From assembly GCA_002366755.1 (NCBI GenBank), contig DFBV01000018.1, positions 15,508 to 64,134 on the forward strand: 48,627 bases of DNA, written 5' to 3'. The notes beneath the pieces were generated by a model. That model was not told where the DNA came from. It ran no database searches and saw nothing but the letters and a program-made list of their open reading frames with translations. The DNA comes from Anaerolineales bacterium UBA3071. Lineage in GTDB: Bacteria > Chloroflexota > Anaerolineae > UBA3071. Both the position numbers and the translations under genes were made by a program. Shown in pieces: positions 12,014-40,733 of this stretch (positions within the stretch are counted from its first letter, which is position 1; every line of letters starts with the position of its first letter).

Positions 12014-12042
12014 GACTTCTCCTTCCTCTCCTCTCTCCTCTG
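11966..12042. repeat. GA-rich arm plus CT-rich arm forming a hairpin across the 4HB stop / ATPase start
   Basis: CAGAGGAGAGATGGGAGAGGAGAGAGGCG (11966-11994) and CTTCTCCTTCCTCTCCTCTCTCCTCTG (12016-12042). Confidence 0.7.
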
Positions 12043-12399: not shown

Positions 12400-12436
12400 C
12401 TCTATCTCTCCTCTCTCCTCTCTGTTCTCTCCTCTG
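12400..12436. repeat. CT-rich simple repeat between permease stop and 4HB start
   Basis: TCTCTATCTCTCCTCTCTCCTCTCTGTTCTCTCCTCTG. Confidence 0.7.
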
Positions 12437-24583: not shown

Positions 24584-25636
24584 TCACACTGCCGCACCAG
24601 TTTCGACGATCGGTTCCCAACTGTGAACTTGGCCTGCAACCAGCAGGTCAGCGATGGCATCCGTGATGGGCAGACCGGTGAGTAGTTCAATCCAGTACCA
24701 CAGTCCTACTGGATTGATCTCCAGAAATACATAACGGCTATCGGGGGTCAGCACCATATCAATGGCCCCGTAAACCAGACCGAAGCTTCTGGTCAACTCG
24801 ATGCACAGTTGAGCGATGGGCAGCAGCAGTTGATGCACGCGGTGAGGCGTATTGTCGAAGTCATAGTGGCGCCAGTCGTGCCTGGTGCGTTCTGAGGCCT
24901 GGGAATGAATCTCGGCGGCGAAGACCCGATTACCGACCACGGTGACTCGAAGCTCAATCTCCTTCGGAACGTACTCCTGAAACAGATTGGCGGCGTAGAC
25001 TACTGAATGAAGGTGAGCCAAATCAGCCTCTTCGACCGGGGTAGTATAGATACCGCCATATCTGGATCCAGGCGGAATCATGCCTCGTTCTAGCTTCTCT
25101 TCACTGACAAAAGGGGCATAAAGGGTCTTGTAGATAACATTGCCTCCGCATTCTTCGTAAAAAGCCTTCACTGCAGTCGGATCGTTGGTGACCAACGTCC
25201 GGGGAACCTCAAGGCCCAACGCCGATGCTCGTTGGAGTTGGACCAGCTTCCGCTCCCCAAGCCGCATTTTGTCAGGGTGGTTGATCCAAAGAATGTGGTC
25301 AAGGTGCAAGATCCCTGCCATGGCCGCCTTGGACTCGGCCTTAGCAAACCGGGCGGCCATGGGCGAGAGCGCAGGATTCACCTCCACTGGATCCGGTCGT
25401 CCCAACCAGGCGCTGTGAATCTCCTGCAAGTCAAGCCGGCGGTGGCTCAAGTCCAAGTCAATGTAGCTATGCCATTTGCCATCGTGATTACTGAAGTACA
25501 GGCGCGAACGTAGCGGAAAATCCGCCGGGTTGAACCGAATGGGACGTGCATTGCGTCGCTCCAACGCCAGGATGATCTTATTGGCATGAAGGTCCCTCTC
25601 GTTGGTGAGAATCAGTACGGTAGGGGCAGATGACAT
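24584..25636 (-). CDS. ATP-grasp ribosomal peptide maturase (MdnC/MvdD graspetide-ligase type)
   Basis: N-terminal VLILTNERDLHA...IRFNPADFP, KL.QLQ.A..LGLEVPRTLVTNDP, DWRHYD, FLEINPVGLWYWIE..TGLPI..AIADLL are all hallmarks I associate with microviridin-type ligases. Confidence 0.8.
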   Translation of the reverse strand: MSSAPTVLILTNERDLHANKIILALERRNARPIRFNPADFPLRSRLYFSNHDGKWHSYIDLDLSHRRLDLQEIHSAWLGRPDPVEVNPALSPMAARFAKAESKAAMAGILHLDHILWINHPDKMRLGERKLVQLQRASALGLEVPRTLVTNDPTAVKAFYEECGGNVIYKTLYAPFVSEEKLERGMIPPGSRYGGIYTTPVEEADLAHLHSVVYAANLFQEYVPKEIELRVTVVGNRVFAAEIHSQASERTRHDWRHYDFDNTPHRVHQLLLPIAQLCIELTRSFGLVYGAIDMVLTPDSRYVFLEINPVGLWYWIELLTGLPITDAIADLLVAGQVHSWEPIVETGAAV

Positions 25637-25657
25637 GTCTCTTTCCTCACTGAAATC

Positions 25658-25692
25658 GGAGGGAGACAGCCCCCATAAGGCTGTCTCCCTCC
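25658..25692 (-). terminator. 13-bp hairpin between precursor and maturase genes (attenuator-type)
   Basis: GGAGGGAGACAGC-loop-GCTGTCTCCCTCC, followed on the minus strand by GATTTCAGTG. Confidence 0.55.
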
Positions 25693-25759
25693 TGCATACA
25701 ACCTTTGACTAATTCAAGGTCGTCGCCGTATGGCATGCTCACTCAGGCTGGACTTCTCC

Positions 25760-26104
25760 TCAGTCGCAATAATAGTCATCCTCGCAGTCCCACTGCCAAG
25801 GTGGCCCGTGGCCAGTGAGATACCGATGGCATGTCTTCTGGTAAGTGCAGCCAAAGATGGGCGTGCCATTGCGGTTCACGAAGAGCTGTCGGTCGGGGTC
25901 GTAGTGGCCATCAAGAACCAACGGCTCTGCCTCACTTGTCTGAGCGAACAGCATGCCGAAGGGGACTTCTTCCCCATTCCAATTCAATCGGGTGCAGTTG
26001 CTCTCAGTTACCAGCACAGATGTTCTAGAAAAAGTGCCTTCTACTGCTGGATTTCGCGTAGATTCTCCGCACGAATCTGCCCAAAATCCGGCAAGACAGT
26101 GCAT
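25760..26104 (-). CDS. Candidate RiPP precursor peptide ending ...GCTYQKTCHRYLTGHGPPWQWDCEDDYYCD
   Basis: Only ORF directly upstream of and co-oriented with the ATP-grasp gene. C-terminus is rich in T/K and D/E, with 4 Cys. Start uncertain (ATG 26104 or internal ATG 25954). Confidence 0.55.
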   Translation of the reverse strand: MHCLAGFWADSCGESTRNPAVEGTFSRTSVLVTESNCTRLNWNGEEVPFGMLFAQTSEAEPLVLDGHYDPDRQLFVNRNGTPIFGCTYQKTCHRYLTGHGPPWQWDCEDDYYCD

Positions 26105-26386: not shown

Positions 26387-29080
26387 TCATTCATCGCCCC
26401 ACATCTGATAGGCCGGGGCTACCTGCCTCGCGCAGGTCAGGGCCGTTTGACGAGGATCAGCTTCAACATCAGCACCATCGAAACACGCCAGATAGGCTGC
26501 CGCCTTCTCCTGCGCCGCTGTCAGGACGCTCTCTGTCTCTTCCCCTTGGGCTGCAGCGTCCACGGCTTGATAGAACCAATCGCTGGGAACCCATGTGCGG
26601 AATACATCTCTCAGACTGTTCACATGTATTGGGTTTTCAGGAGGGCTAAATTGATCGAGCGTGTGCAGAATCGCTGCCTGACGATCCTCGCCGACTCTGA
26701 TCCTGTAAGCATCAGACATAGCCACCTGGCGTCGTGCTGGTGTTACATAACCCCAAGCAGGCACGTTCTCATTGGAGAGAGGAATGAAGCGTTCGCTCAA
26801 ATAGGTGATCCAGGTCCAGCATCCCTGGATTTCCTCGGGAGTAGCCTGGCTGGAGATGAAGTAGGCCGTCCCGTAACCGAAGAAACCAGGGGAGCCCTGC
26901 TGTCCCGCCGGGAACGCTGTGTAGCCGATGTCGAAGGTCGGCCTTTCGTTCGGTGGAAATGTGATGTTGCTTTCCCACATGGCTGCACGCTCGCTCAGAA
27001 CCAGTTGCTCTGCTTCTTGCATCTCCTCGTAGCTAAACAGGCTCAAGCTGTACTGAGGTTTGATGCCATGCACTCGATGAAGGTCAACGTACCATTGTAC
27101 GGCGGCCACGCCCTGGGGATCGGTGAAACGAGGCTGAGGCTTATCGCCTGGCTCCCATGCCTCTGCGCCGTGCCATCTCATGATGCTGCCTAAAATCGTC
27201 CCTTCGTTTCGGGCTACGTAGGCATAGCGCTCGTCAGCCCCGTTTTGTTCTGTCAGTGAGAGGCTGAATTGGAGAAATTCGTCCCAATCCCAGTCCAACG
27301 GGGGATAGGGCTGTCCAAGGCCATCGAATAGATCTCGGTTGTAGGCAATTAAGTACACATAGACCCAGGCAGGAAGACCGAGGACTCGACCATCACGAAA
27401 CAAGGGCTGGCGAGATACTTCGAAAAAGTCCTCTGGAGAAAGATTGGGATCACTATCAATCAGCGGCGTCAGATCCAAGAGTACTTGTCGATCAACCATG
27501 TCTATGTGCCAGCTTCCCTCGAAGCAGGGGGCCCGGCGGGCTATGGACTCGTGTTGCGGCCAACGGAAGACGGTTTGTGATGGCGCGTGGAGTTCCACAT
27601 TGACGACGATCTCGGGATGTTCCTGTAGAAAATCCTCGGCCAGTAGCAAGTAGGGTTCCACGTCCTCGCTAACCAGAAAATCAATCTCGATCCCTCCTCC
27701 CGCCAGCGTTGGCCCCGGCTCAGGCTCTCGGACGACGACGGGCTGAACATTGAGGTTGACCTGTTGCTTAACCGCCGCGGCAAGCTGGTCCATGACCCGT
27801 GCCTGAGCTTCGGCCAATGCCGCTTCTACAGGCTCCTGCTCGACGAGGACGGCCTTCAATACCGCGTCCAACCCCTGCCGAACAGGACGGGCCAGACTGG
27901 CATCGCCCAAGCGATCGTCGAGGGGAGGGCTGAAGGCACTTACATTGTCGAACACCCAGCGGAAAGCGGCAGCCACGTCGGGGTGCAGTCGTTCCCAGGC
28001 ATCACTGGCCTTGGCAACAGAGCGGCGCGGCGGCAAGTTGTTGGGACTGTAAAGCACGCCGAGAGGAGGAACATCCTGATAGCTGAGCCAGGAGAGCCAG
28101 CGCCACGCTTCCTGGGGATGCTGGGTGCCGCCGCTGATCATGTAGCCTTTATACTCGATGTAACGGTTCGCCTCGGACGATTGCGGATAGGGCACAAAGC
28201 CGAGATCACGCGAGGAGAACTCGAGGCGATCCATGTCACTCGACAACCCGCCCCACATGGCGACCTTGCGAGCATCAATCAGGTTGCGCTCTTCCTGCCA
28301 GCGAGAACTAAAGCTCAGGCCTTCCAAAACTGGCGCCACCTGATGGACGAGGAATAAGTTCGCATACCACTCTAGAGCGGCAACCATTTGGCTATCGGTC
28401 AGATTGACGCGGGGTGGCACATCCATCTCCAGGATGTCTCCCGCCTCGGCCAGCAACCAGTACCTGGTGTGGCGCTGCTGAGGCAGGAAACCATAGCGCC
28501 GATCGCTCGGGCTATCGGCTGAAACGTAGGTGAGACGCTGAGCCGCCTGCAAGAACTCGTCCTTGGTCCATCCTGGCCGAGGGTAGGGCACGTTAGCCGC
28601 ATCCAGGATCTCCTTGTCATACAAGATGCCCCAAAGGTAGAGAGGGCCAGGGAGCCGGACGATGCGGCCTGTTGCATCTGTGGTCAGCGCGCCGGGGAAG
28701 AAATCATCCTGGTTGAAGCCACGATCGGAGTCGATGAACAGCTTCAAGTCGAGGTAATAGTCCTGCCCCTGGTACCGGGCCGGGATTTGCTGGTACACCG
28801 TGTCCGCTAGCTGTGCAATCTGACGGGGGTAGTCGTCTGGCCACTGCGATCGGGGTCCAAGTTCATTGGTCAAGGAAACGATCTGGATGGAGATACCTGG
28901 GTTCTCCTCCTCAAACTGCTTGGCAAGTTCCAGATAAGCAACCTGTTCGCGGTCTTCGACTGCGAACGTAACAACGGTGGGCTCCAGGTTGTCGAGATCG
29001 TGTTGGGGAGCTGGGCTAGAGGTACAACCCACCACTAGCAGGGTGAGGATCAAGAGTGAGCACGCAAGTCTTGTCTTCAT
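26387..29080 (-). CDS. Double solute-binding-protein lipoprotein (two tandem family-1 SBP domains), paralog 1
   Basis: Lipobox LLVVGC after MKTRLACSLLILT (AAGGAG SD). Two SBP_bac_1/8-like halves. Conserved C-terminal Cys pair. Confidence 0.8.
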   Translation of the reverse strand: MKTRLACSLLILTLLVVGCTSSPAPQHDLDNLEPTVVTFAVEDREQVAYLELAKQFEEENPGISIQIVSLTNELGPRSQWPDDYPRQIAQLADTVYQQIPARYQGQDYYLDLKLFIDSDRGFNQDDFFPGALTTDATGRIVRLPGPLYLWGILYDKEILDAANVPYPRPGWTKDEFLQAAQRLTYVSADSPSDRRYGFLPQQRHTRYWLLAEAGDILEMDVPPRVNLTDSQMVAALEWYANLFLVHQVAPVLEGLSFSSRWQEERNLIDARKVAMWGGLSSDMDRLEFSSRDLGFVPYPQSSEANRYIEYKGYMISGGTQHPQEAWRWLSWLSYQDVPPLGVLYSPNNLPPRRSVAKASDAWERLHPDVAAAFRWVFDNVSAFSPPLDDRLGDASLARPVRQGLDAVLKAVLVEQEPVEAALAEAQARVMDQLAAAVKQQVNLNVQPVVVREPEPGPTLAGGGIEIDFLVSEDVEPYLLLAEDFLQEHPEIVVNVELHAPSQTVFRWPQHESIARRAPCFEGSWHIDMVDRQVLLDLTPLIDSDPNLSPEDFFEVSRQPLFRDGRVLGLPAWVYVYLIAYNRDLFDGLGQPYPPLDWDWDEFLQFSLSLTEQNGADERYAYVARNEGTILGSIMRWHGAEAWEPGDKPQPRFTDPQGVAAVQWYVDLHRVHGIKPQYSLSLFSYEEMQEAEQLVLSERAAMWESNITFPPNERPTFDIGYTAFPAGQQGSPGFFGYGTAYFISSQATPEEIQGCWTWITYLSERFIPLSNENVPAWGYVTPARRQVAMSDAYRIRVGEDRQAAILHTLDQFSPPENPIHVNSLRDVFRTWVPSDWFYQAVDAAAQGEETESVLTAAQEKAAAYLACFDGADVEADPRQTALTCARQVAPAYQMWGDE

Positions 29081-29099
29081 GATTGCTCCTTGCGACAAA

Positions 29100-29186
29100 C
29101 TATCGGGAGAAGGTTTCGTTGAGGGTGTAACCCTGGCCATCGGGCGAGCCGTGCCGGTTGTAGCGGCCCTTGAAGTAGGTGAGCAT
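29100..29186 (-). CDS. Possible 28-aa peptide MLTYFKGRYNRHGSPDGQGYTLNETFSR
   Basis: GAGGAAGGG SD 5 nt before the ATG. Occupies the same position (just 5' of an SBP gene) as the other small peptide genes. Could instead be a degraded relic. Confidence 0.25.
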   Translation of the reverse strand: MLTYFKGRYNRHGSPDGQGYTLNETFSR

Positions 29187-29221
29187 GTTTCCCTTCCTCA
29201 ACGGCAGACCCAGCAGGCTCA

Positions 29222-29435
29222 AATCAAAAAGCGCCAATCTCTCAAGGCACAGGCGTGCCCTGAGAAATCGGCGCTCTTCGCGGAGGCCAAACCACCTTTT
29301 CGCTGTGAATTATGGCGGGCTGTTTCCTTCTCTCTCTCTCTCTCTCTTCAAGAACATCTTATCCTCCCCGAACTTCCCATCAGGCACCACTTCGTGGTCT
29401 TGGCCGGTACAATCGTTGCATGGTAATTCTACCAC
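29222..29435 (-). promoter_or_regulatory. ~200-nt leader, copy A: SD-uORF, (GA)n tract, 20-bp terminator hairpin plus U tract
   Basis: About 85 percent identical by eye to 40533-40733. uORF at 29357..29310 (MFLKREREREGNSPP). Terminator at 29226-29275. Confidence 0.65.
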
Positions 29436-29454
29436 AGCTCTCGTGGTTTGTCAA
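29426..29454 (-). promoter_or_regulatory. Sigma70-type promoter TTGACA-17 nt-TAGAAT driving leader A
   Basis: On the minus strand, TTGACA is at 29454..29449 and TAGAAT at 29431..29426, with a 17-nt spacer. Confidence 0.6.
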
Positions 29455-29518
29455 ATCCGCTTTGCCCGTGGTGACGGAAATTCTAAGGTTCTGCAGCCGG
29501 GCTGGCGGGGCAAACGGC

Positions 29519-29553
29519 GGCAAATGGAAAGCCCCTCGCGGATGCACGAGGGG
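29519..29553 (-). terminator. Terminator-like hairpin with conserved 23-mer, after SBP paralog 2
   Basis: Minus strand reads CCCCTCG-tgcatc-CGCGAGGGG CTTTCCATTTGCC. The 23-mer GGCAAATGGAAAGCCCCTCGCGG recurs at 36803. Confidence 0.5.
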
Positions 29554-29607
29554 CTCAGTGTCGCTTCGGGTAACACTGAGCGACTCAGCCTTTTGTCGGA
29601 TCCGAAA

Positions 29608-32136
29608 TCACGGTGCGTCCACCTCTTGGAAGCAGGCGTCGGCGCTCGCCCGCTCTTCCAGGTCAGGGCGCTGCCGCAGGCAGTTCAAGTAGGCTTCGGC
29701 TTTTCCTTGCGCTTGGCTCAGCGCGGCCTGGGCGCCGGCACCGTGCCAGACGATCTCTTGGGCGGCCTGTATCAGCCAGGTGTAGGCCTTCTTGGACCCG
29801 GGCACCCCTTCCAGGTCGCGGAAGACGTCGGTATGTTGATATGCCAGCGATTCCAGGTAGGCAGCCTGGGCTTCCTCCCCCACGTATGCACGGAATTCGT
29901 CAGAGGCCACCAGTGAGCGACGGGCCGGAAGACCATCCTGCGGGATATGGTCCGAGACGAACTTCAGCCATTCCCAGCAGGCCTCGACGTGGGGGGTGTT
30001 GGCGGCGATGTAATAAGCCATGACCATGCTGCGAGGAGCAACGGGCCGACTGCCCCTGGGCAAAGGAGCAGCGCCGATGGAGCGTCCTTGGTACCTGGCC
30101 CACTCCATCCCCACTGACATGGATGACCGGATCCACATCCCGACCCTTCCGCTGTGGATCAGGCTATAATTCAGATCGTACAACTCGTCGTAGCCACCCG
30201 ACCCCGCTTCCAGAGCGGGAGCGACGCCGTCGGTCACCAGGCCAGCCAGTTGCTGTGCTGCTACCACCACGTCCTGCGTGTCGAAGCGGAAACCGGTCGG
30301 CGTTCCCGGGTTGTCCACCAGCGTCCCTGCCATCGCCTCCAGCAGGAATGCCAGGCTGGTGCCCGGCCATAGGACAACGCCATAGCGCTGCTCAGCGCCC
30401 TCCCCGCCACTCAGTTTCCTGGCCGCCACCAGCCAATCGTCCCACGTCCAGCCCGCTGCCGGGAAGAGGCCGGTCTCGTCGAAGAGTGCCTTATCGTAGT
30501 AAAGCACATCCACTGCGACCTGAGCGGGGAGCCCCCACAGGTCATTTTGATAGCGTACCCGCTCCAACACCTGGGGGTCGTAATCATCAAGGGGAAACCC
30601 GGGGTCGGTTTCAATCAAGGGCTGCAGGTTGAGCACACTCTGGCGCGTCTCCTCGGCGAGCGAGGCAGCGGTGAGGATACAGTCGGCGTGGCTGACCGCG
30701 ATCAGCGCCGCCAGGGTATGGTCTTGAGCAGAGAACTCCTCCGCGCCGCGCACCACCACTTCGATCTCCGGGTGGGTCTCGTGGAAGGCTTGGGCCAGCG
30801 CCTCGTATGTAGACCGGTTCCAAACGGGGACGAAGGTGATCGTATCTTTGCCCGGTGGTGCTGGTGTGGGTAAGGGAGCGATGGTAGGCTCTGGAGCCGG
30901 GGTGGCCTGCGCCAGCGCCTTCTGCTGGGCAGCCGACATCGCGGCTTCTACTGCCTCGCCGGCGAAAATCTGGTCGAGGGCCTGGGAGAGCCACACGCGC
31001 ACCATAACCGGCCGGACGGGGGGCAGGGCATGCTCCACCGCGTACTGAAAGGGGGCCAGGGCCTCTGCCCCGGCTGCGGTGGCGAGGGCGGATTCGAGGG
31101 TCAGGCTGCGCCGGGCTGGAAGGAGATCGGGCGGGGCGGCCTGCCGGCTGAGGAACTGTAACCAGCGCCAGGCTGCTTCCGGATGGGAAGTGCCGGCGCT
31201 GATGAAATAACCGTACACGTCCATCAGCGGACCTTTCCCCGGCAAGGGCGCGACCCGCAGAGAGGGACGATCCCGGACTGCCGCAGCCCACGAGCTGGCA
31301 AGGCCCACCGCCATCGCCGCTCGGCCCTCGAGCAGCGGGGCCAGCAGAGACTCCCCTTCTGCCTGGACCGGGTTGAGCATCACGCCGTGGGTCAGAGCCA
31401 GGTCGGCGTACCACTGCACCGCTGCCACCGTGCGGGGGTCATCCAGCATCGGGCGCGGCGGCTCCACCGAGGGGTCCACGATCTGCGCTCCCTGCACTTC
31501 GATCACTGATTCGAGACCCCCTCCCAGGAGGTCAGCGAAGCCGTAGCGCACGACCTGTCCTCCCTCTCGCTGCGTGAGGCGCTGCGCCTGGCTCAGGAGG
31601 TCATCCCAGGTCCAGCCCGCGGTGGGATACACCATCCCCGCATCGTCGAAAGCGGCCGGGTCGTAGAAGACGACGAGAGGGTCCACCCCGGCCGGCAGGC
31701 CCCACGTACCCTCCTGCCAGCGGAAGCGCTCCAGCAGGCCGGGGAGGAAATCTGTCTCGTCTGGCTCCCCGTCGGCCTCGAGAAACGGCGCTAGGTCGAG
31801 CAGCAGGCCAGATGGTCCGACCTCAACGGCGCCCTCATAAACGATAAAGGTGTCGGCGCTGGAGGCCAGTTGTCGCAGGGGAGTGGATCGCTCCACAGGC
31901 ACAATCTGTACTTCCAGGTCAGGGTGGGCATCGTGAAAAGCGTCGGCAACGGCCTGGTAGATCATCTTGTCGTCCATGGGGCAGGCGAAGGTGAGTCTGG
32001 TCAGATTGCCCACATGAGCAGCGGTCGGCGTTTTTCCTGGGGTGGTGCAGGCTCCCAGGGTGGCAATGAGCAGCACCAGCGACAAACTTAGCCTGCCCGC
32101 TCGCTGAGAAAAAGAACGCACTGTGCGGTCTGGCAT
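29608..32136 (-). CDS. Double solute-binding-protein lipoprotein, paralog 2
   Basis: MPDRTVRSFSQRAGRLSLSLVLLIATLGAC lipobox. Two SBP halves joined by a Pro/Thr/Ala linker. Confidence 0.8.
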   Translation of the reverse strand: MPDRTVRSFSQRAGRLSLSLVLLIATLGACTTPGKTPTAAHVGNLTRLTFACPMDDKMIYQAVADAFHDAHPDLEVQIVPVERSTPLRQLASSADTFIVYEGAVEVGPSGLLLDLAPFLEADGEPDETDFLPGLLERFRWQEGTWGLPAGVDPLVVFYDPAAFDDAGMVYPTAGWTWDDLLSQAQRLTQREGGQVVRYGFADLLGGGLESVIEVQGAQIVDPSVEPPRPMLDDPRTVAAVQWYADLALTHGVMLNPVQAEGESLLAPLLEGRAAMAVGLASSWAAAVRDRPSLRVAPLPGKGPLMDVYGYFISAGTSHPEAAWRWLQFLSRQAAPPDLLPARRSLTLESALATAAGAEALAPFQYAVEHALPPVRPVMVRVWLSQALDQIFAGEAVEAAMSAAQQKALAQATPAPEPTIAPLPTPAPPGKDTITFVPVWNRSTYEALAQAFHETHPEIEVVVRGAEEFSAQDHTLAALIAVSHADCILTAASLAEETRQSVLNLQPLIETDPGFPLDDYDPQVLERVRYQNDLWGLPAQVAVDVLYYDKALFDETGLFPAAGWTWDDWLVAARKLSGGEGAEQRYGVVLWPGTSLAFLLEAMAGTLVDNPGTPTGFRFDTQDVVVAAQQLAGLVTDGVAPALEAGSGGYDELYDLNYSLIHSGRVGMWIRSSMSVGMEWARYQGRSIGAAPLPRGSRPVAPRSMVMAYYIAANTPHVEACWEWLKFVSDHIPQDGLPARRSLVASDEFRAYVGEEAQAAYLESLAYQHTDVFRDLEGVPGSKKAYTWLIQAAQEIVWHGAGAQAALSQAQGKAEAYLNCLRQRPDLEERASADACFQEVDAP

Positions 32137-32163
32137 TTGTACACCCCTCTCACCATAACCATT

Positions 32164-32200
32164 GAGATGAAGCCTCCAGTTCACGCTGAGGCTTCATCTC
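32164..32200 (-). terminator. Perfect 13-bp hairpin between small peptide gene and SBP paralog 2
   Basis: GAGATGAAGCCTC-11 nt-GAGGCTTCATCTC. Confidence 0.45.
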
Positions 32201-32223
32201 GACTGTAGACACAAACAACAGGT

Positions 32224-32421
32224 TCAGCAAGGGCCGGGCCAGTCCCCCAGGCGGAACTCGCAGTAGAGGTCGCAGCTACTGCCTGGTGGGTTGCAGTCCG
32301 GATGGTTGACACAGTGGTAGCACCAGTACTCCCAGTGTTGCTGGGTCTCGTATACCTGGCGCGGCCACAAAGTTACATTTTGAAAACACAGAATAGGACA
32401 CAGATTTTCACAGATGAACAC
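32224..32421 (-). pseudogene. Cys/aromatic-rich peptide (paralog of 44112-44336) whose 5' part is replaced by a MITE-like insertion
   Basis: ...HWEYWCYHCVNHPDCNPPGSSCDLYCE... aligns to WCYYCCNHPDCLPYNCCDLFCE. There is no signal peptide, and the N-terminal 18 codons lie inside the AT-rich element. Confidence 0.5.
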
Positions 32422-32512
32422 AGATCAGGCTGCATTGCTGGCGAAAATCGAGAAAAATCCGTAAAAATCAGTGTCAATCAGTGTTAATCTGTGTCCCATA
32501 AAATGTAACCTT
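32369..32512. mobile_element. AT-rich ~140-bp MITE-like element with terminal inverted repeats and 10-bp-phased internal repeats
   Basis: AAAGTTACATTTT...GGACACAGATT versus AATCTGTGTCC...AAAATGTAACCTT. CACAGA occurs at 32387, 32399, 32409 and 32419. ATC(A/T)GTGT(C/T) occurs at 32467, 32477 and 32487. Confidence 0.55.
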
Positions 32513-32638
32513 ATGCCCGTCATCAGTATATATGTGGGGTCATGTAGCGTCTCTCGCGCCGCCGGTTAATGGCCATATCCGTGACAAATGACCCACTAGC
32601 AAGCTCAGGCTCAGTTTTCATCCGTCAAGGTCTTGCCC

Positions 32639-35224
32639 TCACCAGGACTCATAGTCTGGATCTACCTCCTGAGCGCAGGTCTCGCGCAGTTCACCGTCGT
32701 ACTCGCTCGCGGTGACCCGCCCTCCCAGGCAGGCCACGAAAGCCTCCGCCTTGGCCTGGGCCTCGGCCAGGGCTTCTTCCACCTCAGCCCCCTCCATCAC
32801 CCGATCAAAGGCTTCGTAGAACCAGTACCGACGAACCGTGTACACCCAGGGATATTCCTCGTACACGGGATTTACGCTCCCGACACTGCGTTCCAGCGCG
32901 AATTGGAAAGTCGCCAGAGCTTCTTCCCCCACTCGCTGCTGATACTCTGGTGTCTCCATCAAGGAACGCCGTGGGGGAACCCCTTGAACCACTGCGAGCT
33001 GGCCGGTCAGGAACTTGATCCACTGCCAACAGGCTTCTGGGTAGGGTGAGTTGACCGAGATTACGTAAGCGACGATCTTGTTTTGGTTCATTTTCCCCTG
33101 ACCCAGGGGCAAGGGGGCCATACCGACGCGGAAGGGGAAAGCCTGGGCAGGCATATTGCCGGGATACTCGGCCCACATAGCCACCCGGCCTGTGGATACC
33201 ATGTCCCGCTGCCTTTGAAGATGCGCATCTCGATCCCGAAAGTAGTCTTTGATGTAGAGGGGGGGCATCACACCGTGGACCAGGGCCAAGTCGGCGTACC
33301 AGCGCACTCCCTCAACCATTGCCGGGGTGTCCAACTGAGGTCGTGGGGGCCGGGTGGACACGTCCGCCACAGTAGCGCCGTGCTGTCCAAGGAAGAACAG
33401 CAGATCATAGCACACCGGGTCGAGAGGTATGTAGCCGTACTGTTTGCTCTCCCCTTCTTCTTCTCTGGTCAGGGCTACGGCCTTTTCCAGGAAGTCGTCC
33501 AAATCCCAACCCGGCTGGGGATATGCCACGCCTGCCGCGTCGAAGAGGTCCTGGTGGTAATACATCACTTTCACGTCGCCGTCAGCCGGCAGGCCCAGGA
33601 GATCCCCTTGCCAGCGCCAGGTCTCCAGGAACCCGGGATAGAAATCGTCCAGGGGTAAGTCCTGGTCGGCGTCCACGAGAGGCTGCAGGTCGAGGACGTG
33701 CTGGCGATGCTCCGGTACGTAAGGGGTCGTATCGAAAGCGGTAAAGCAATCACAGGCTTCAGCCCAATAGGGAACCCCCCACTGCTCCGGCACTGTCACC
33801 TCCACCATGATCTCGGGATGGTCATCATGAAACGCTTCGGCCAGGGCATGGTAGGGAGCCGTCTCGCCGCGCCCACAGAAGGTGATGGTGACTTCCTCAC
33901 CAGTTGCCCTCTCTGGCTTCGGCGTGGCCACGGCCACGGGTGTCGCTGGGGTGACCTGCTGGGCCTCTTGCGCCGCAGCCAGAGCCTGCGCCTGGGCCTC
34001 GGCCAGGGCCTCCTCCACACCTCGTTCTCCGGCGAAGATGGCGCCCAAAGCTGTCAGGAGTGGCATATCCAGTGACAGCCCCGCAGGCACCTCCATCTGA
34101 AATTTCTCCAGGACGTAGCGGTAGACCGCAGCCGTCTCCTCGTCCAACGAGGCCCAAACGTCCACAGCCCCGGCCAGCGAGCGGCGCGGCGGCACAGTCC
34201 CTTCCTCAGTGGCCAGGGGCTGACGGGTCAGAAAAGTCAGCCAGAGCCAGCTCTCCTGCGGATGGGCAGTCCCGGCGCTCATGGCGTAGCCCGCCGCCTG
34301 TTTCCAGCCCACGATGGCCTTCCCCTCGGGCAGCGGCGCTACGCCCAGGTCAGGATAATACGGCATGTAGTCGCCGAGTTGGTCGGAGTAGCCGGGCCAC
34401 ATGGCCGCCTTGCCGTCCTGGATCAGCTCCACCAGCCGCACGGTCTTTTCGAGGCGGGGCGTGACGCCCTGGCGGGTCAGGTCGGTGTACCAGTTGACGG
34501 CTTCAGCCATGGCTGGATCGTCCAACCGGGGAAGCGGCGGGGTCGTCGTCTCATCCGTCCAGGTACCGGCGCGGCCCAGGATCAGGGCTATTGCCGCGCG
34601 CGGCCAGGGATTGATGAAGCCGTAGCGCAGCGTCTGGTCCCCCTCTCGCACGGTCAACTGCTGTGTCACCTGGGTGAAGTCCTCGTAACTCCAACCGGGC
34701 TGGGGCGGAGCGATGCCAGCCTGGTCGAAGGCGGCTTTATCGTAAAAGATCAAGGCCAGGGTCGTGCGCACAGGCAGAACCCAGGTGCCGCCGTCCCAGC
34801 GGAACTGCTCCAGCAGGCCGGGGTAAAAATCTTCGGCCTCGAAGGTTGGGTCGGCTTCCAGGAGAGGGGTCAGGTCCCGCAGCAGACCCCGCCGCGTGTC
34901 CTGGGGACGGATTAGACCTGCTGGACCGGTGAACGTATCAGCCGCTGTCGCCAGCTTGCTTAAGATATCTCGGTGCTCAGTTCCCAGGATCGCATTCTCC
35001 GACAGCAGCCGCACGGAGATGTGAGGATGGGTTTTGTGAAAACGCTCGGCCAGCCGCTCGTACTGGGGAAGATCCCAATCGTTGACGGCGAAGGTGATGG
35101 TTACCTGCTGGGCGGGCGCAGGGGTCGGCGTGGGTGTAACTTGCGAGGAACAGGCCGCCACCAGTATGACTAAAAGCATCCTTGGGAGTAGACGTTGCAA
35201 AGATCTCGACGGTATCACTTTCAT
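32639..35224 (-). CDS. Double solute-binding-protein lipoprotein, paralog 3
   Basis: GGAAGGAG SD. MKVIPSRSLQRLLPRMLLVILVAAC lipobox. Two SBP halves. Confidence 0.8.
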   Translation of the reverse strand: MKVIPSRSLQRLLPRMLLVILVAACSSQVTPTPTPAPAQQVTITFAVNDWDLPQYERLAERFHKTHPHISVRLLSENAILGTEHRDILSKLATAADTFTGPAGLIRPQDTRRGLLRDLTPLLEADPTFEAEDFYPGLLEQFRWDGGTWVLPVRTTLALIFYDKAAFDQAGIAPPQPGWSYEDFTQVTQQLTVREGDQTLRYGFINPWPRAAIALILGRAGTWTDETTTPPLPRLDDPAMAEAVNWYTDLTRQGVTPRLEKTVRLVELIQDGKAAMWPGYSDQLGDYMPYYPDLGVAPLPEGKAIVGWKQAAGYAMSAGTAHPQESWLWLTFLTRQPLATEEGTVPPRRSLAGAVDVWASLDEETAAVYRYVLEKFQMEVPAGLSLDMPLLTALGAIFAGERGVEEALAEAQAQALAAAQEAQQVTPATPVAVATPKPERATGEEVTITFCGRGETAPYHALAEAFHDDHPEIMVEVTVPEQWGVPYWAEACDCFTAFDTTPYVPEHRQHVLDLQPLVDADQDLPLDDFYPGFLETWRWQGDLLGLPADGDVKVMYYHQDLFDAAGVAYPQPGWDLDDFLEKAVALTREEEGESKQYGYIPLDPVCYDLLFFLGQHGATVADVSTRPPRPQLDTPAMVEGVRWYADLALVHGVMPPLYIKDYFRDRDAHLQRQRDMVSTGRVAMWAEYPGNMPAQAFPFRVGMAPLPLGQGKMNQNKIVAYVISVNSPYPEACWQWIKFLTGQLAVVQGVPPRRSLMETPEYQQRVGEEALATFQFALERSVGSVNPVYEEYPWVYTVRRYWFYEAFDRVMEGAEVEEALAEAQAKAEAFVACLGGRVTASEYDGELRETCAQEVDPDYESW

Positions 35225-35284
35225 TTCATGCTCCTTCCATTGTGTCCGGCTAACCGATCTGAGGTTGCGGACGTCAATCTTATG

Positions 35285-35316
35285 GAAGAGAGAGCCCACA
35301 AAGGAACTCTCTCTTC
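35285..35316 (-). terminator. Perfect 10-bp hairpin after the His-repeat peptide gene
   Basis: GAAGAGAGAG-12 nt-CTCTCTCTTC. Confidence 0.45.
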
Positions 35317-35329
35317 TGTGGCAATGTCA

Positions 35330-35530
35330 CTACTCGCAAACATCTGTGTGCTGATTGGTGTGGTAGTTATTATGGATGTTGTCATGAACACACGCTTCAG
35401 CCACACTTGCCGTGAGCACCATCCCCAGCACGCTGGCAGTCAGCGCTGCTCCCGTCACCACTGCCGCCTTGCGCCCGATGTTGCCCTCTTCGAGTACAAT
35501 GAAGTCGGTCACCTTCTTTGGCACGTTCAT
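35330..35530 (-). CDS. 66-aa candidate RiPP precursor / membrane-anchored peptide with C-terminal C-V-(HDNI)(HNNY)(HTNQ)(HTDV)-C-E
   Basis: GGAAGGAGG SD. Lies 100 nt downstream of and co-oriented with the radical SAM/SPASM gene. Central hydrophobic helix, then four H-x-(N/D)-x units flanked by Cys. Confidence 0.65.
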   Translation of the reverse strand: MNVPKKVTDFIVLEEGNIGRKAAVVTGAALTASVLGMVLTASVAEACVHDNIHNNYHTNQHTDVCE

Positions 35531-35633
35531 CCTGTTTCACCTCCTTCCTGTGTGGGTTTTGTGCTGGATCCGAACCTTTGATATCCATCCAATATCCATC
35601 ACCTCCTTCTCCCGACGGCAATTGGGCATCCCT

Positions 35634-36761
35634 CTACACCCAACTGTTCAAAATGGCTGCCTCCTCACGATTGAGGAGTTTCCTGAACAGGTGGGGGATC
35701 ATCTCCCTGTAGATCTGACATTCGAAGTTGAGGGGAATGTTGGGAATGGGGCTGCCGTGCTGGTTGATGCCCCGCGCCACGCAGTAGCCACAATACGGTC
35801 CGAAGGGGCAAGTCTGACATTCTGGCAACGTCTCGGCGGCCAGAGTGCGCAGGGCCATAGCCGTGTCCGACGTGAAGACCTCGTCGTAGGTGTCGCTCAA
35901 GACGTTGCCCATGATCAACATCGGAACACTGCGACCACCATCGCAGCCGTGAATGGTGCCATTATGACCAACAATGACCTGCGATATACCACAACCGCAG
36001 GGCCGGCGCAGGCACATGTAGGCGTGCGCAGGGTTCAGCACGTTTCCCAGCAGATAGGCCGTCTTGCCCTCACGGAAGCTGTGGCCCCCGCGGTTCTTCT
36101 CCAGCACGTAGTCCAAAGTGCGCTTCCAGGCTCCGACGAACTGCTCCGGCGTCACGCCAACGTCGTAGCCCGACTCATAGGCCCGCCCTAGATAGTTCAC
36201 ATATCGCAAGTACAGAATATTCACGCCGCGCTCGATGTATTCATCAACGATCTCCCTCTCATGCCCCAGCCCGTTGACGGTGAAGGTGGGCAGGAAGGGC
36301 ACGAAGATGTCGTACTCCTCCTTGAGCTTCTCCGCCCAGCGCACGACGTCCTCGTAGGTCCCTCGCCCGCTGGGATAGACCCGCTGCCGGTCGTGCACCA
36401 GCGGTGGGCCATCGAGGGAGGAGCATAGCTTGACGTTGCCTCGCTCCTTGATGTCCTGAGCGATCTCGTCGCTCATCAGCGTAAGGTTGGAGACGATAGC
36501 GAAGCTGAGTTCGATACTCTCCGCCTCAGCCCGCTGCATGGCGTAGTCCATGGCCTTCTGAATCAGGTCGTAGCGCAGGAGAGGCTCGCCGCCCTGGAAC
36601 TCGATGCGCATCTGCTTGCGGCCCTGGCGGGGCACGGAGAAGAAGAAGTCCACGGTCTTGTAGAGCACCTCATCGTCCATGTCCCACTCCTTGCGGGAGA
36701 GCGACTGCGATTTGGCGTGGCAGTAGACGCAGGCCATGTTGCAGCGGTTGGTGGGCACCAT
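35634..36761 (-). CDS. Radical SAM enzyme with C-terminal SPASM domain (peptide-maturase type)
   Basis: CNMACVYC (CxxxCxxC) at the N-terminus. GGEPLL. C-terminal CGCG...C and CQTCPFGPYCGYC auxiliary-cluster motifs. The true start may be upstream (see findings). Confidence 0.85.
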   Translation of the reverse strand: MVPTNRCNMACVYCHAKSQSLSRKEWDMDDEVLYKTVDFFFSVPRQGRKQMRIEFQGGEPLLRYDLIQKAMDYAMQRAEAESIELSFAIVSNLTLMSDEIAQDIKERGNVKLCSSLDGPPLVHDRQRVYPSGRGTYEDVVRWAEKLKEEYDIFVPFLPTFTVNGLGHEREIVDEYIERGVNILYLRYVNYLGRAYESGYDVGVTPEQFVGAWKRTLDYVLEKNRGGHSFREGKTAYLLGNVLNPAHAYMCLRRPCGCGISQVIVGHNGTIHGCDGGRSVPMLIMGNVLSDTYDEVFTSDTAMALRTLAAETLPECQTCPFGPYCGYCVARGINQHGSPIPNIPLNFECQIYREMIPHLFRKLLNREEAAILNSWV

Positions 36762-36802
36762 GATGAAGAGAGAAGGCGGCCGGTGCAGAAAGCCGTAGCG
36801 CT

Positions 36803-36837
36803 GGCAAATGGAAAGCCCCTCGCGGGCGGCACGAGGG
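36803..36837 (-). terminator. Terminator-like hairpin with the conserved 23-mer, after SBP paralog 4
   Basis: Same GGCAAATGGAAAGCCCCTCGCGG block as at 29519. Stem CCCTCG/CGAGGG. Confidence 0.45.
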
Positions 36838-36865
36838 TCTTGGCGACAGACATAAGCTCCTTACG

Positions 36866-39439
36866 TTATCCTCCTCCGTACGTCGCATCCACCTGTCTGG
36901 CGCAGGCATCGGCCCGCTCCTGATCATCCTCGATCTCACTGGCGGCCCAGCAGGCCACGTATGCCTCCGCCTTGGCCTGCGCTTCATCCAAAGCCATCTC
37001 CACCTCTATCCCTTGCGCGATGTCCAATAGCGCCTGACGGAAGCAAAGCCAGATTTGGTCGAACCACGGCGTCCTCTCGGACAGCTCGGGGGTCCGACTG
37101 TCGAAATACTCAACCGTCGCCCGATAAGCAGCCGCCACTTCGCCCCCCACGGCTTCTTCGAAGGCCGGGGAAGCCATGAGAGAGCGACGGGTGGGCAGCG
37201 AGATTCCGGCCGGCCGCTGCTCGGTCAGGTGGGCAAGCCACTCCCAGCACGTCTGAGGATGCTTCGTATTAGCTGAAATGAAGTAGCCGGATAAGTAAAA
37301 CTCAGCCGCCCCTTGAACCTCCCCCAAGGGTAGCGGTGCCATTCCCCACTGCACACCTCTGAATCGTTCCTGTTCCAGGCTCATCCCCATCCACATCGCC
37401 ACCCGCCCGCCACTGATGAGGAGAGCCCGCTGCCGGAAGGCTACAGCCCCTTCTTCTTCCCCTTCTGGCAGAAGGAGCACCGCACCTTTCTCGGCTAGGT
37501 CGAAGAATCTGCGCGCCGCCTCCACCACCTTGGGAGCGTTAAGAGTGGGGCAAGTGGGATGTTGGAGATCATCCACCAGGGAGCCCCCGTGGGCATAGAC
37601 GAAGGGAATAGCCTGGCTGGGCAGCGCAATGAAGCCATACTGTTTGGTTTCTCCCTCACCCTGGGTCAGACGAAGAGCCTTGTCGTAGAAATCGTCCCAC
37701 ATCCAACCAGCCTGGGGGTAGTCCACTCCAGCAGCGTCGAAGAGGTTTCGGTTGTAGAAGAGCACCTGAACCTGTATCGTGGCCGGAAGGGCATAGAGAT
37801 CGCCCTCCCAACGATAGGCGTCCAGCGCTCGGGGACAGAATCCATCCAGGGAAAAGGCGGGATCAGCTTCCAGGAGGGGTTGGAGGTTCAGGACGTGGGG
37901 CAGAGATTCCTCCGGCAAATCGCCCCAGAGGAAGCAATCGGTCTGAGTGGCCGTCTCGACAAAGGAAGATCGGGAGTCCCTGACCACAATCCTGATGTCT
38001 GGGCGTGCAGCAGTGAAGGAACGGGCCAACTCTCGATAGGGCAGGAACTCAGGGCCGTAGGCAAAGGCGATCTCCACTTCCTCCTTAGCTGCCGTTGGGG
38101 TGGCCATGACCACCGGCCGAGGAGGGGTCTGCATAACCTTAACCAACTGAGAGTGGTAGGCCATAGCCTCTGCCTGAGCCTGCGCCAAGGCTGCCTCGGC
38201 CGTCGCCTCCCCTCGAAGCACGGCGCGCAACGCCTGAGACAGCCATCCATACAGGCGGAAGGGGCGTAACGGAGGCATGGCGTGCTCCAGGGCGTAGAGA
38301 TAAGCGGCAGCGTTTTCCTCGCCCATTTGCTCCCGGAAGCCCGAAGTTTCGAACACCGATCGGCGTGCAGGGAGTTCGTTCCTCAGCCGGCGGGTCGTCA
38401 GGAAATGGATCCATTCCCAGCTCTCATGAGGGTGAGCCGTAGCGCCACTAATGTAGTAGCAAGAGAGGAAAACAGCATCAGTTGGCTGTTTTCCCTCGGG
38501 GAAAGGCACAAAGCCCAGGCGCATCTCTTGGGCCGCCTTGGAAAGCGAGTCTGGACGCCTCGGCTCCATCCACATGGCGACGTGCCCCTCCAGAGGCAGC
38601 TCGAATAGAGTGGAGAACTCCATTCCGGAAGTATCGGCCACCACTTGATGGCGAAGGGTCAGGTCGGCAAATTCCCGTAACGCCGTCGCTACCCTCGGAT
38701 CGTCCAACGTAGGGCGGATCGGGTCGGCGAAAGGATCCGCCAGAGACCCGCCATGTCCGTAGATATAGGAAACCAGGAACTGGGGACTAGTGGGGAGAAA
38801 AGCATATTTGACCCCTCGATGCCCGGCCAGGGACTGGGCTTTGGCCAGGAAATCATCCCATGTCCAGCCGATTTGTGGATAGCTCATGCCCGCCTGGTCG
38901 AAAAGGTCCTTGTTGTAAGCGATGAGCATGAGGTTCACCTGGTCAGGCAAGCCCCATAGCTCTTCCCGCCAGGTAAGGCGCTCCAGAAGGCCGGGGAAGA
39001 AATCATCGGCCTTGAAAGTGGGATCAGCCTTGGCCAGGGGATCCAGGTTCAGCATGTAGCCCTGCGCAATCCCATTCCAGGGCTCGAGCGTTAAGGCAGT
39101 GAAGGTATCGGCGGCTGAGGCCAGCAGCCGTATATCTTCCCCTGGCTCGGCCGGCTGGTCCGATTGCAGGTCAAGGATCTCCTCGTAGCTCTTCAACTGG
39201 ATGGTGATGCCCGGATGGGCCTGGGTGAATTCCTCGGCCAGGGGTTCGTAAACTTGGAACGTGCCCTTATAGCAGGCAAACGTGACGGTGACGGGAGCAG
39301 TGGTAGGTAAGGGTGGGAAAGGGCTTGCTCTGACGCCCGCTGGGGCGGTAGGCTCTTCAATCCGTTCAGGGATCGTTGGTGGCCTACAATGAACCAACAG
39401 CAGTGCTGGCAGGACGAATAGAGCAAAGATTTTTCTCAT
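36866..39439 (-). CDS. Double solute-binding-protein lipoprotein, paralog 4
   Basis: AAGGAGG SD. MRKIFALFVLPALLLVHC lipobox. Two SBP halves. Confidence 0.8.
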   Translation of the reverse strand: MRKIFALFVLPALLLVHCRPPTIPERIEEPTAPAGVRASPFPPLPTTAPVTVTFACYKGTFQVYEPLAEEFTQAHPGITIQLKSYEEILDLQSDQPAEPGEDIRLLASAADTFTALTLEPWNGIAQGYMLNLDPLAKADPTFKADDFFPGLLERLTWREELWGLPDQVNLMLIAYNKDLFDQAGMSYPQIGWTWDDFLAKAQSLAGHRGVKYAFLPTSPQFLVSYIYGHGGSLADPFADPIRPTLDDPRVATALREFADLTLRHQVVADTSGMEFSTLFELPLEGHVAMWMEPRRPDSLSKAAQEMRLGFVPFPEGKQPTDAVFLSCYYISGATAHPHESWEWIHFLTTRRLRNELPARRSVFETSGFREQMGEENAAAYLYALEHAMPPLRPFRLYGWLSQALRAVLRGEATAEAALAQAQAEAMAYHSQLVKVMQTPPRPVVMATPTAAKEEVEIAFAYGPEFLPYRELARSFTAARPDIRIVVRDSRSSFVETATQTDCFLWGDLPEESLPHVLNLQPLLEADPAFSLDGFCPRALDAYRWEGDLYALPATIQVQVLFYNRNLFDAAGVDYPQAGWMWDDFYDKALRLTQGEGETKQYGFIALPSQAIPFVYAHGGSLVDDLQHPTCPTLNAPKVVEAARRFFDLAEKGAVLLLPEGEEEGAVAFRQRALLISGGRVAMWMGMSLEQERFRGVQWGMAPLPLGEVQGAAEFYLSGYFISANTKHPQTCWEWLAHLTEQRPAGISLPTRRSLMASPAFEEAVGGEVAAAYRATVEYFDSRTPELSERTPWFDQIWLCFRQALLDIAQGIEVEMALDEAQAKAEAYVACWAASEIEDDQERADACARQVDATYGGG

Positions 39440-39559: not shown

Positions 39560-39868
39560 TCAAGTACCACATGGGAAGTGCCGGTCCTCCCAATTGCCAC
39601 AATAGCAGCGCCATTTCCACCCGCTCTCGCATTTCATCCAGAATTCGTCTCCCTCATGCCAAGTCCAACCGTCGATCCCCCAACGACATGACCAGCAAGC
39701 ATCGGGGTATCTCACTATACAGCCTTCGCAGTCCTCAAGGGGCTGCACTGGGCCGGCATTTGCCATAGAGGGCGTGAAGAAACTCACCGCCGCCAACACC
39801 AGCGATGCGACGAGCATTGTGACCAAGCCACCCATGACCACCCTTTGCATTTTACCATACTTCACCAT
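39560..39868 (-). CDS. Secreted Cys/Trp-rich small protein (about 64-aa mature part, 8 Cys, 8 Trp)
   Basis: AGGAGG SD 8 nt before ATG 39868. Signal peptide ...FFTPSMANA, then GPVQPLEDCEGC...WKWRCYCGNWEDRHFPCGT. Confidence 0.65.
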   Translation of the reverse strand: MVKYGKMQRVVMGGLVTMLVASLVLAAVSFFTPSMANAGPVQPLEDCEGCIVRYPDACWSCRWGIDGWTWHEGDEFWMKCESGWKWRCYCGNWEDRHFPCGT

Positions 39869-39957: not shown

Positions 39958-40515
39958 TCACTCGACTTCGGCCAGCTTTTTCAGTTGCCCCAATGAGTTG
40001 GCGAAGCCCCTGCTAACAACGACGCCACTTTCGTTGATGACGTATAAGAAGGGCGTGCCCGGCACCTTGTAATCCCGCGCCACCCCATCATCCCAGATCA
40101 GAACGGGGAAACCAAACCCTTGCTCCTCCACCAGTTGCTGGTTCTCCTCTACGGAGCCCCGCGAGATCATCACCACTTGCATTTCGTCCATTTCCTCGCT
40201 GAAGGTCTTCAAGTTGGGGGATAGTTCAGCGCAGGCCGGACATCGGGTGGAGGAGAAGACCAGCAACACTCCCTGCCCCGCAAAATCACCCAACGTGACC
40301 GTTTGACCCCTCACGTCGGGCAAGCTGAACTCTGGCGCTTTCGTGCCCTTCTCCAGGCCCGGCGGCTCGCTCACCGCCCCCAAGAACTCCAGCGCTGCTA
40401 CGACGTTATTCTGCAACTGGTTCATTCTGATGAAAAGGCCGATGATGGTCACCATCAACAGGATGACGATGCCCATCAGCATCAGGAGCAGAACGTTGGT
40501 CTTCGTTTCGTTCAT
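39958..40515 (-). CDS. TlpA/ResA-like membrane-anchored thiol-disulfide oxidoreductase
   Basis: N-terminal TM helix and redoxin fold with a CPAC active site (FSSTRCPACAEL). Start is ATG 40515 or GTG 40521. Confidence 0.8.
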   Translation of the reverse strand: MNETKTNVLLLMLMGIVILLMVTIIGLFIRMNQLQNNVVAALEFLGAVSEPPGLEKGTKAPEFSLPDVRGQTVTLGDFAGQGVLLVFSSTRCPACAELSPNLKTFSEEMDEMQVVMISRGSVEENQQLVEEQGFGFPVLIWDDGVARDYKVPGTPFLYVINESGVVVSRGFANSLGQLKKLAEVE

Positions 40516-40532
40516 GGGCACACCTTTGTCGG

Positions 40533-40733
40533 AATCAAAAAGCGCCGACCTCTCAAGGCACGAGCATGCCCTGAGACATCGGCGCTCTTCGCGGACGCCA
40601 AACCACCTTTTCGCTGTGAACTATGGCGAACTGTTCTCTCTCTCCGCAAGTGCATCTTATCCTCCCCGGACTTCCCACCAGACATCACTTTGTGGCCTTA
40701 GCCAGTATGATTGCTGCACAGTAATCCTACCAT
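40533..40733 (-). promoter_or_regulatory. ~200-nt leader, copy B, directly upstream of the TlpA-like gene
   Basis: Homologous to 29222-29435. A 47-codon uORF (40655..40512) reads through the terminator hairpin (40536-40585) and ends in ATGA on the TlpA start. The -35 region is replaced by foreign sequence. Confidence 0.65.

Follow-up and report, generated by a model that had tools for sequence, protein, structure and literature searches.

A duplicated promoter-leader-terminator cassette with a GA microsatellite as a candidate translation-dependent attenuator in a Chloroflexota-like bacterium

Contig DFBV01000018.1 of Anaerolineales bacterium UBA3071 carries, within the stretch of 48,627 nucleotides (nt) analyzed here (contig positions 15,508 to 64,134; in the following, the window), two copies of a segment of approximately 215 nt on the minus strand, copy A at 29222-29454 and copy B at 40533-40743. 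Each copy combines sigma-70-type promoter sequences, a leader open reading frame (ORF) that begins with a Shine-Dalgarno (SD) motif and an AUG and contains a GA dinucleotide tract, and an intrinsic terminator, and each lies directly in front of an operon. The best single explanation that we can offer for this cassette is a translation-dependent attenuator whose state is set by the length of the tract, a reading that we hold tentatively and place somewhat short of an even chance. The two copies are 78-90% identical, the DNA flanking them is unrelated, and a search with a leader profile (nhmmer) revealed no third copy in the window. In coordinates of the window, the cassette consists of the following parts.

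29426..29454, minus strand: copy A promoter, sigma-70-type, with TTGACA, a 17-nt spacer and the extended -10 TGgTAGAAT; promoter scan 11/12, TG motif present
40724..40761, minus strand: copy B promoter region, with the extended -10 TGgTAGGAT and a -35-like GTGACT; an insertion sequence (IS) element adjoins it upstream
29363..29367, minus strand: copy A SD motif GGAGG, 5-nt spacer to the AUG, within a block 90% identical between the copies
40661..40665, minus strand: copy B SD motif GGAGG, 5-nt spacer to the AUG
29310..29357, minus strand: copy A leader ORF, 15 codons plus UAA, MFLKREREREGNSPP; AUG at 29357-29355, stop UAA at 29312-29310
40512..40655, minus strand: copy B leader ORF, 47 codons plus UGA, MHLRRERTVRHSSQRKGGLASAKSADVSGHARALRGRRFLIPTKVCP; AUG at 40655-40653, stop UGA at 40514-40512
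29329..29347, minus strand: copy A GA microsatellite, (AG)9A, 19 nt, the longest dinucleotide repeat in the window
40635..40644, minus strand: copy B GA tract, (GA)5, the second-longest dinucleotide repeat in the window
29275..29317, minus strand: copy A conserved block 2, CGCCAUAAUUCACAGCGAAAAGGUGGUUUGGCCUCCGCGAAGA, between the leader-ORF stop and the terminator, 95% identical to copy B
29225..29280, minus strand: copy A intrinsic terminator, 26-bp hairpin with core 29274-29231, -45.7 kcal/mol, followed by TTTTTGATTT
40536..40591, minus strand: copy B intrinsic terminator, hairpin with core 40585-40542, -44.9 kcal/mol, followed by TTTTTGATT (40541-40533)

Promoter and terminator are separated by a leader of about 140 nt in each copy. 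In copy B, a 9-nt insertion/hairpin has pushed the -35-like GTGACT to 26 nt, and the promoter scan made no call in this region. Both terminators are predicted as 26-bp hairpins with a T5 run, and substitutions between the copies preserve pairing in the hairpin (G-U/G-C and U-A/U-G exchanges), apart from one G-G mismatch in copy B. The next gene starts 35 nt (copy A) or 18 nt (copy B) past the end of the leader repeat at TTTTTGATT, and the promoter scan detected no promoter-like site between terminator and next gene in either copy. Since there is neither room for a promoter nor a promoter-like site between the terminators and these genes, the cassette is the 5' leader of both operons, and the downstream genes are expressed only via read-through.

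The two copies are in different frame states. In copy B, as an earlier note on this DNA had proposed, the SD-AUG opens a 47-codon frame that spans both hairpin arms and ends in a UGA overlapping the AUG of the downstream redoxin gene (40515-40513) as ATGA, and we confirmed its coordinates. The short copy A ORF described in that note does end ahead of the hairpin, its UAA falling 35 nt short, and the +1 frame (...ARHNSQRKGGLASAKSADFSGHACALRDWRFLI, then a stop) is indeed open across the hairpin, with its stop 9 nt past it; the arithmetic by which one added GA unit would bring the copy A AUG into this long frame also holds. The tract starts 9 nt past the AUG in both copies, and its repeat unit is not a multiple of three. 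Past the tract, the three frames stop alike in A and B: one 35 nt ahead of the hairpin, one within its 3' arm (UGA of CCUUGAGAG) and one beyond it, by 9 or 27 nt. The early stop is retained despite a substitution, being UAA in A and UAG in B. Because A and B share these three stop positions, gain or loss of one GA unit shifts the state of either. The proposed origin of the 1-nt register offset stood only in part: the offset and the two tracts, (AG)9A versus (GA)5, are as described, but the 13-nt indel between the copies consists of four GA units plus AAGGA, and the offset therefore does not come from repeat count alone.

Several of these features are rare by chance. When the window was simulated 300 times under a Markov model, the longest tract had 7 units and none reached nine; 0.63 tracts of at least five units are expected per window in the same simulations. 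The arrangement GGAGG-N4-8-ATG has a chance probability of p = 0.022 in a 170-nt leader. A 47-codon open frame is expected by chance in about 25% of cases at this G+C content, by our own estimate of ~0.03 stops per codon, so that the long ORF itself is not significant. The striking feature is the occurrence of SD-AUG, microsatellite and terminator together at one place, not the long ORF.

From these parts, we infer translation of the leader ORF, suppression of termination by this translation, and changes in tract length that are frequent enough for a phase switch. In the proposed mechanism, initiation on the leader ORF would be strong, and the GA microsatellite 9 nt past the AUG would set the frame. 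A ribosome on an ORF reaching into or past the hairpin would block hairpin formation and cause read-through, whereas a ribosome released 35 nt upstream would leave the hairpin free to form and cause termination. Copy B would then represent the "through" (high) state, with additional translational coupling to the redoxin gene via ATGA, and copy A the "early stop" (low) state; slippage by one GA unit would shift either copy into another state. In favor of this reading, the copies share promoter, SD-AUG, tract position and terminator in unrelated flanks, and the downstream products include four paralogous large surface solute-binding lipoproteins. Surface proteins are often under phase variation. 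The suggestion in the earlier note that the tract acts as a phase-variable switch is thus borne out for the architecture, with SD-AUG, repeat, terminator and frame stops present in both copies, whereas tract-length switching itself was not seen.

The architecture closely resembles that of the pil1 locus of Streptococcus gallolyticus, where expression switches as GCAGA repeats are gained or lost inside a leader-peptide ORF (Danne et al. 2014, PMC3894217). There, a stop 39 bp before a stem-loop terminator gives low expression and a stop within or after the terminator gives high expression, as the ribosome in the other frames prevents hairpin formation; deletion of a hairpin arm locks expression high, and destruction of the ribosome-binding site (RBS) or ATG locks it low (PMC3894217). 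Every architectural feature of pil1 is found in the cassette: promoter, RBS-ATG leader ORF, internal repeat with a unit length not divisible by three, intrinsic terminator and operon follow in the same order, one frame ends well ahead of the hairpin (by 39 bp in pil1 and 35 nt here) and the other two end within or after it, and the downstream products belong to the cell surface. The two systems differ in the repeat (a dinucleotide of 5-9.5 units here, 22 GCAGA units in pil1), in hairpin stability (-45 versus -18.7 kcal/mol) and in copy number, with two copies in opposite predicted states in this genome. Moreover, the host is an uncultured environmental Chloroflexota-like bacterium rather than a host-associated Firmicute, and there is no sequence homology. 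Of the two systems, repeat-number variation and translation dependence have been demonstrated for pil1 alone. We regard the cassette as a plausible, unproven pil1-like attenuator that is specific to its lineage.

Two further systems share part of this layout. In the pyrBI operon of Escherichia coli, a 44-codon leader ORF is translated across the attenuator, and UTP is sensed via polymerase pausing at U-rich sites. Similarly, the copy B leader ORF (47 versus 44 codons) spans the terminator and ends beside a structural gene, and close coupling of ribosome and polymerase would suppress termination. However, pyrBI lacks both a repeat and a heritable switch of frame; in the cassette, the leader shows no visible metabolic connection to its operon, and copy A has another layout. 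In Haemophilus influenzae hmw1A, (ATCTTTC)n repeats in the 5' untranslated region (UTR) form an arm of a long hairpin that is cut by RNase III, and expression scales with repeat number (PMC12721329). The cassette likewise has a microsatellite that is transcribed as part of the 5' leader of an operon for surface proteins, and the length of this repeat could tune expression once transcription has started. In contrast to hmw1A, the GA tract has no complementary partner in the leader and is located inside an ORF, so that its effect would obey a three-state frame rule.

Several observations weigh against a switch set by tract length. One early stop together with two frames that extend to the 3' arm is a frame geometry with a chance probability of p ~0.19. 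The substitutions in the long frame, judged by eye from the A/B alignment, are mostly non-synonymous, so that the leader peptide sequence is without visible selection; leader ORF codons 2 and 4 carry two differences each between the copies (F/H and K/R). A phmmer search with the 47-amino-acid (aa) product gave no match in 1.84 billion representative proteins. The (GA)5 tract of copy B is short for a hypermutable tract, and the mechanism presupposes that ribosomes closely follow RNA polymerase in this phylum. The Logan assembly of SRR1313318 (contig L033 for copy A, L041 for copy B) is identical to the window over both copies, tracts included; this identity argues weakly against gross tract heterogeneity, as the assembly may share its sample with the window and minority alleles do not show in consensus contigs. 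The breaks in the Logan contigs fall within the 5' end of the redoxin gene and not at the GA tract, and this location away from the tract makes the break uninformative on tract heterogeneity.

A further set of points against the switch comes from relatives and database scans. The sequence of the window is contained in JGI metagenome contig Ga0209121_10000204. Proteins of the window resemble those of Anaerolineae/Chloroflexota metagenome-assembled genomes, and redoxin orthologues (65-69% identity) lie in PadR-ABC-redoxin-small protein-FtsX operons. With the nhmmer profile, the leader was absent at the fetched redoxin loci, at HxsB-like radical SAM clusters (83-84% identity) and at three loci with orthologues (75-82% identity) of the 897-aa solute-binding protein encoded past copy A (SBP897); among all fetched loci, the profile matched only the contig of the window itself and the Logan SRR1313318 contigs, L033 being matched by the profile and L041 being identical by alignment. 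At two of these three, L038/L039 and L040, the SBP897 orthologue is immediately preceded by a conserved small ORF (MLTYFKG.Y.R.G.PDGQGYT...), which itself follows a plain TGnTAnnAT promoter and a short, terminator-free UTR. As the nearest available relatives are without the leader, the window has an extra cassette of ~200 nt. Exact-pattern scans of genome_contigs (20-mer), metagenome_contigs (18-mer) and viral_contigs (two scans) yielded only chance matches; those in genome and metagenome contigs were checked with nhmmer, and the source contig is in neither of these two sets. The earlier note had suggested looking for a conserved AUG and frame in the leaders of relatives; no homologous leader was found at orthologous loci, and this check therefore cannot be passed.

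Conservation along the cassette is uneven: the first 34 nt are 74% identical between the copies, the small hairpin and SD-AUG 90%, and the 43-nt block 2 95%, the difference between block 2 and the 5' part of the leader being significant (Fisher p = 0.009). The high conservation of block 2 is explained by none of the models offered here, the translation model included. It counts in favor of a conventional attenuator, in which RNA structure or a bound factor (protein, small RNA or ligand) is in control, an alternative that we consider possible but doubtful. Here, UGGGAAGUYCGG just before the SD motif would pair as an antiterminator with the terminator 5' arm, or else block 2 would be a binding site; the GA tract would be a passive single-stranded linker that varies in length, and the leader ORF incidental or a ribosome-loading or decoy site. 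Such a role would fit the 13-nt indel, which is tolerated between functional-looking copies. Among upstream segments, the candidate antiterminator GGUGCCUGAUGGGAAGUUCGGGGA (leader positions 33-56) pairs best with the terminator 5' arm in both copies, and its duplex in copy A (-25.6 kcal/mol) is stronger than expected from shuffles (p ~0.013), but the copy B duplex reaches only -16.7 kcal/mol and is no better than shuffles. Two double substitutions are compatible with this helix and with a competing small hairpin: one keeps the antiterminator pairing (G-C in A, A-U in B), the other the small hairpin YCUGR/YCGGG (A-U to G-C). With no homologues in relatives, however, covariation is limited to two sequences. 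Likewise, the copy A SD motif GGAGG is able to pair with CCUCC just before the terminator, but this has become CGUCC in copy B.

Folding of the leaders lends this alternative little help. Upstream of the terminator, they are no more structured than shuffled sequences (z = -0.01 and +0.72), a result more in keeping with translation of the leader than with a riboswitch aptamer. The minimum-free-energy folds of the single sequences A and B differ in this part, and neither the P1 hairpin nor the block-2 hairpin is significant. Rfam gave no match at gathering thresholds in the whole window (4227 models), and at E<=10 both copies drew only noise matches to microRNA and long noncoding RNA models. In their promoter, ~200-nt leader, terminator and gene, and in having a candidate antiterminator strand, the copies resemble Rfam riboswitch leaders; they differ from them in matching none of the models, having no excess structure, not being conserved in relatives and carrying a low-complexity indel in mid-leader. 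Membership in a known riboswitch or cis-regulatory family of Rfam 15 is not supported, given the missing model match and the lack of excess structure in the upstream leader. ARAGORN found no tRNA or tmRNA.

An attenuator of the trp/his type, sensing an amino acid, does not fit either. The AGA/GAG codons of the leader ORF stem from the repeat alone, the downstream genes encode a redoxin, a Cys-rich peptide, solute-binding proteins and peptide-modification proteins but nothing for amino-acid biosynthesis, and the candidate antiterminator is significant in copy A only.

We regard it as decidedly unlikely that the cassette lacks a dedicated role in regulation and reflects the recent local duplication of a segment with promoter and terminator, its tract a product of neutral slippage and its frames accidental. 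The region is certainly rearranged, with an IS beside copy B and the 9-nt insertion in the copy B promoter, an N-terminally truncated radical SAM gene, and duplicated solute-binding protein genes and terminators; the cassette is also unique to this contig in our scans, and the frame geometry (p ~0.19) would suit an accident. Against this, a terminator of -45 kcal/mol with no other promoter behind it would silence two operons, which makes neutrality unlikely, and the SD-AUG is conserved (p ~0.02), hairpin substitutions preserve pairing and conservation is uneven along the cassette. An origin as a miniature inverted-repeat transposable element or IS-derived repeat was rejected on the sequences themselves: the sole inverted repeat, from inspection and from reverse-strand nhmmer matches at the hairpin, is the terminator, the ends of the repeat are not complementary, and beyond the two copies in the window none turned up elsewhere in the scans. 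The coding explanation was rejected as well, as the 13-nt indel disrupts every frame that spans the repeat, and ORFs entirely downstream of the indel show non-synonymous differences only.

Least probable, and in our view very unlikely, is a pair of paralogous small-RNA genes, possibly dual-function, whose influence on the downstream operons would be secondary, with the (AG)n tract and U tail acting as chaperone-binding modules and the conserved blocks as seed regions: promoter, ~200 nt and strong terminator are the standard layout of a small-RNA gene, the cassette is lineage-specific, duplicated and built of conserved blocks around a variable middle, as is typical of small-RNA families such as OmrA/B, and a complementary CUCUCUCUUC tract lies at 35294-35285 before another solute-binding protein paralogue, but genes on the same strand follow 18 or 35 nt past the terminator with no promoter of their own, so that the RNA is necessarily their 5' leader. 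An independent small-RNA gene with its own promoter and terminator was rejected on the same ground.

For the translation-dependent attenuator, the literature searched holds phase variation by a leader-peptide frame switch before a terminator as a demonstrated case only for the S. gallolyticus pili. The full claim, that a free-living Chloroflexota-like bacterium stochastically and heritably switches terminator read-through before two operons by slippage of a leader-ORF microsatellite, as a second and independently evolved case of the pil1 mechanism, is in our judgment unlikely. If true, it would provide an independent case in a distant environmental phylum, with a dinucleotide repeat and a duplicated cassette before surface-lipoprotein and peptide-modification operons, and would suggest a general and easily evolved route to bistable expression. 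Microsatellite contingency loci would then not be confined to host-associated pathogens and could take the form of a portable promoter-leader-terminator cassette, and the combination of SD-AUG, repeat, terminator and three-frame stop pattern would be a sequence signature for metagenome screening. If false, the cassette remains an unclassified attenuator leader of one lineage only.

The operons behind the two copies begin with the following genes.

39958..40515, minus strand: first gene past copy B, a membrane-anchored AhpC/TSA-redoxin, TlpA/MauD-like, 185 aa, assigned by Pfam and homologues
29100..29186, minus strand: first gene past copy A, a conserved 28-aa small ORF, MLTYFKGRYNRHGSPDGQGYTLNETFSR, with orthologues in L038 and L040
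26387-29080, minus strand: gene for the 897-aa solute-binding lipoprotein, after the 28-aa small ORF

The copy B operon comprises the redoxin, a Cys-rich peptide and giant solute-binding lipoproteins, and the copy A operon the small ORF, the solute-binding lipoprotein and a graspetide-like set. In the relatives, the small ORF (L038, ~1033-1146; L040, ~2628-2738) extends further (...FVARSNH) and overlaps the TTG start of the solute-binding protein gene as TTGA, which suggests translational coupling of the two. In the window, it is shortened by eight codons through a TAG, and the solute-binding protein gene starts with ATG. At ~965-1035 of L038, the promoter is separated from the small ORF that precedes the SBP897 orthologue by a remnant of the redoxin N terminus (MTKSKTDVLLLMLM...) with 26 of 28 nt identical to window positions 40500-40473. 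This remnant points to a past deletion that fused the two operon heads which bear the leader copies in the window.

Downstream of the copy A solute-binding protein gene, the graspetide-like set (22741-26104, minus strand) is conserved in relatives (L040, 5681-8946). Its members are a precursor-like ORF (...LDGHYDPDRQLFVNRNGTPIFG...), for which L038/L040 have a homologous 78-aa gene, an MvdD-type ATP-grasp ligase gene (24584-25636) and an ABC exporter gene (22741-24690). The gene after the redoxin (39560-39868, minus strand) encodes a secreted Cys/Trp-rich peptide of 102 aa (...CEGCIVRYPDACWSCRWGIDGWTWHEGDEFWMKCESGWKWRCYCGNWEDRHFPCGT), which is a plausible redoxin substrate; relatives also have a gene of 82-98 aa at the position after the redoxin.

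Four paralogous giant solute-binding lipoprotein genes (857-897 aa) stand in tandem at 26387-39439 on the minus strand. The 857-, 886- and 858-aa proteins have two solute-binding protein Pfam matches each. Short islands of conserved nucleotides (repeat families D1-D3) recur among the genes, whose terminators are also similar, and the array has the appearance of a surface-protein family undergoing diversification. At 35634-36761 (minus strand), the radical SAM/SPASM (HxsB-like) gene encodes 375 aa, whereas most of the closest homologues of full length (65-84% identity) have 478-504 aa. Its N-terminal ~104 aa are missing, and in their place are the 3' end of a solute-binding protein gene and a terminator (36837-36817), with the junction at ~36760-36870; the terminator is a near-copy of one upstream of leader copy A (~29550-29530). 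The gene may be a truncated pseudogene. It is followed by a His-rich, precursor-like ORF of 66 aa (...CVHDNIHNNYHTNQHTDVCE; 35330-35530, minus strand) that is homologous to an 82-aa gene at the same position in L034, and then by a hairpin, GAAGAGAGAG/CUCUCUCUUC (35285-35316), with a CU arm complementary to the GA tract of the leader.

The IS remnants beside the copy B promoter (40744-43356, plus strand) include a 253-aa DUF772-like fragment (40828-41589) and a 569-aa DUF772/DDE_Tnp_1_6 transposase gene (41644-43353). An ORF of 588 aa on the minus strand (41590-43356), for which Pfam gave no match, probably represents an antisense artefact. Further away, a 226-aa ORF (8611-9291, minus strand) contains a Cas12f1-like TNB domain and resembles a TnpB-like fragment, and a gene for a 23S rRNA intervening-sequence protein (12010-12468, minus strand) lies between ABC ATPase and FtsX permease genes.

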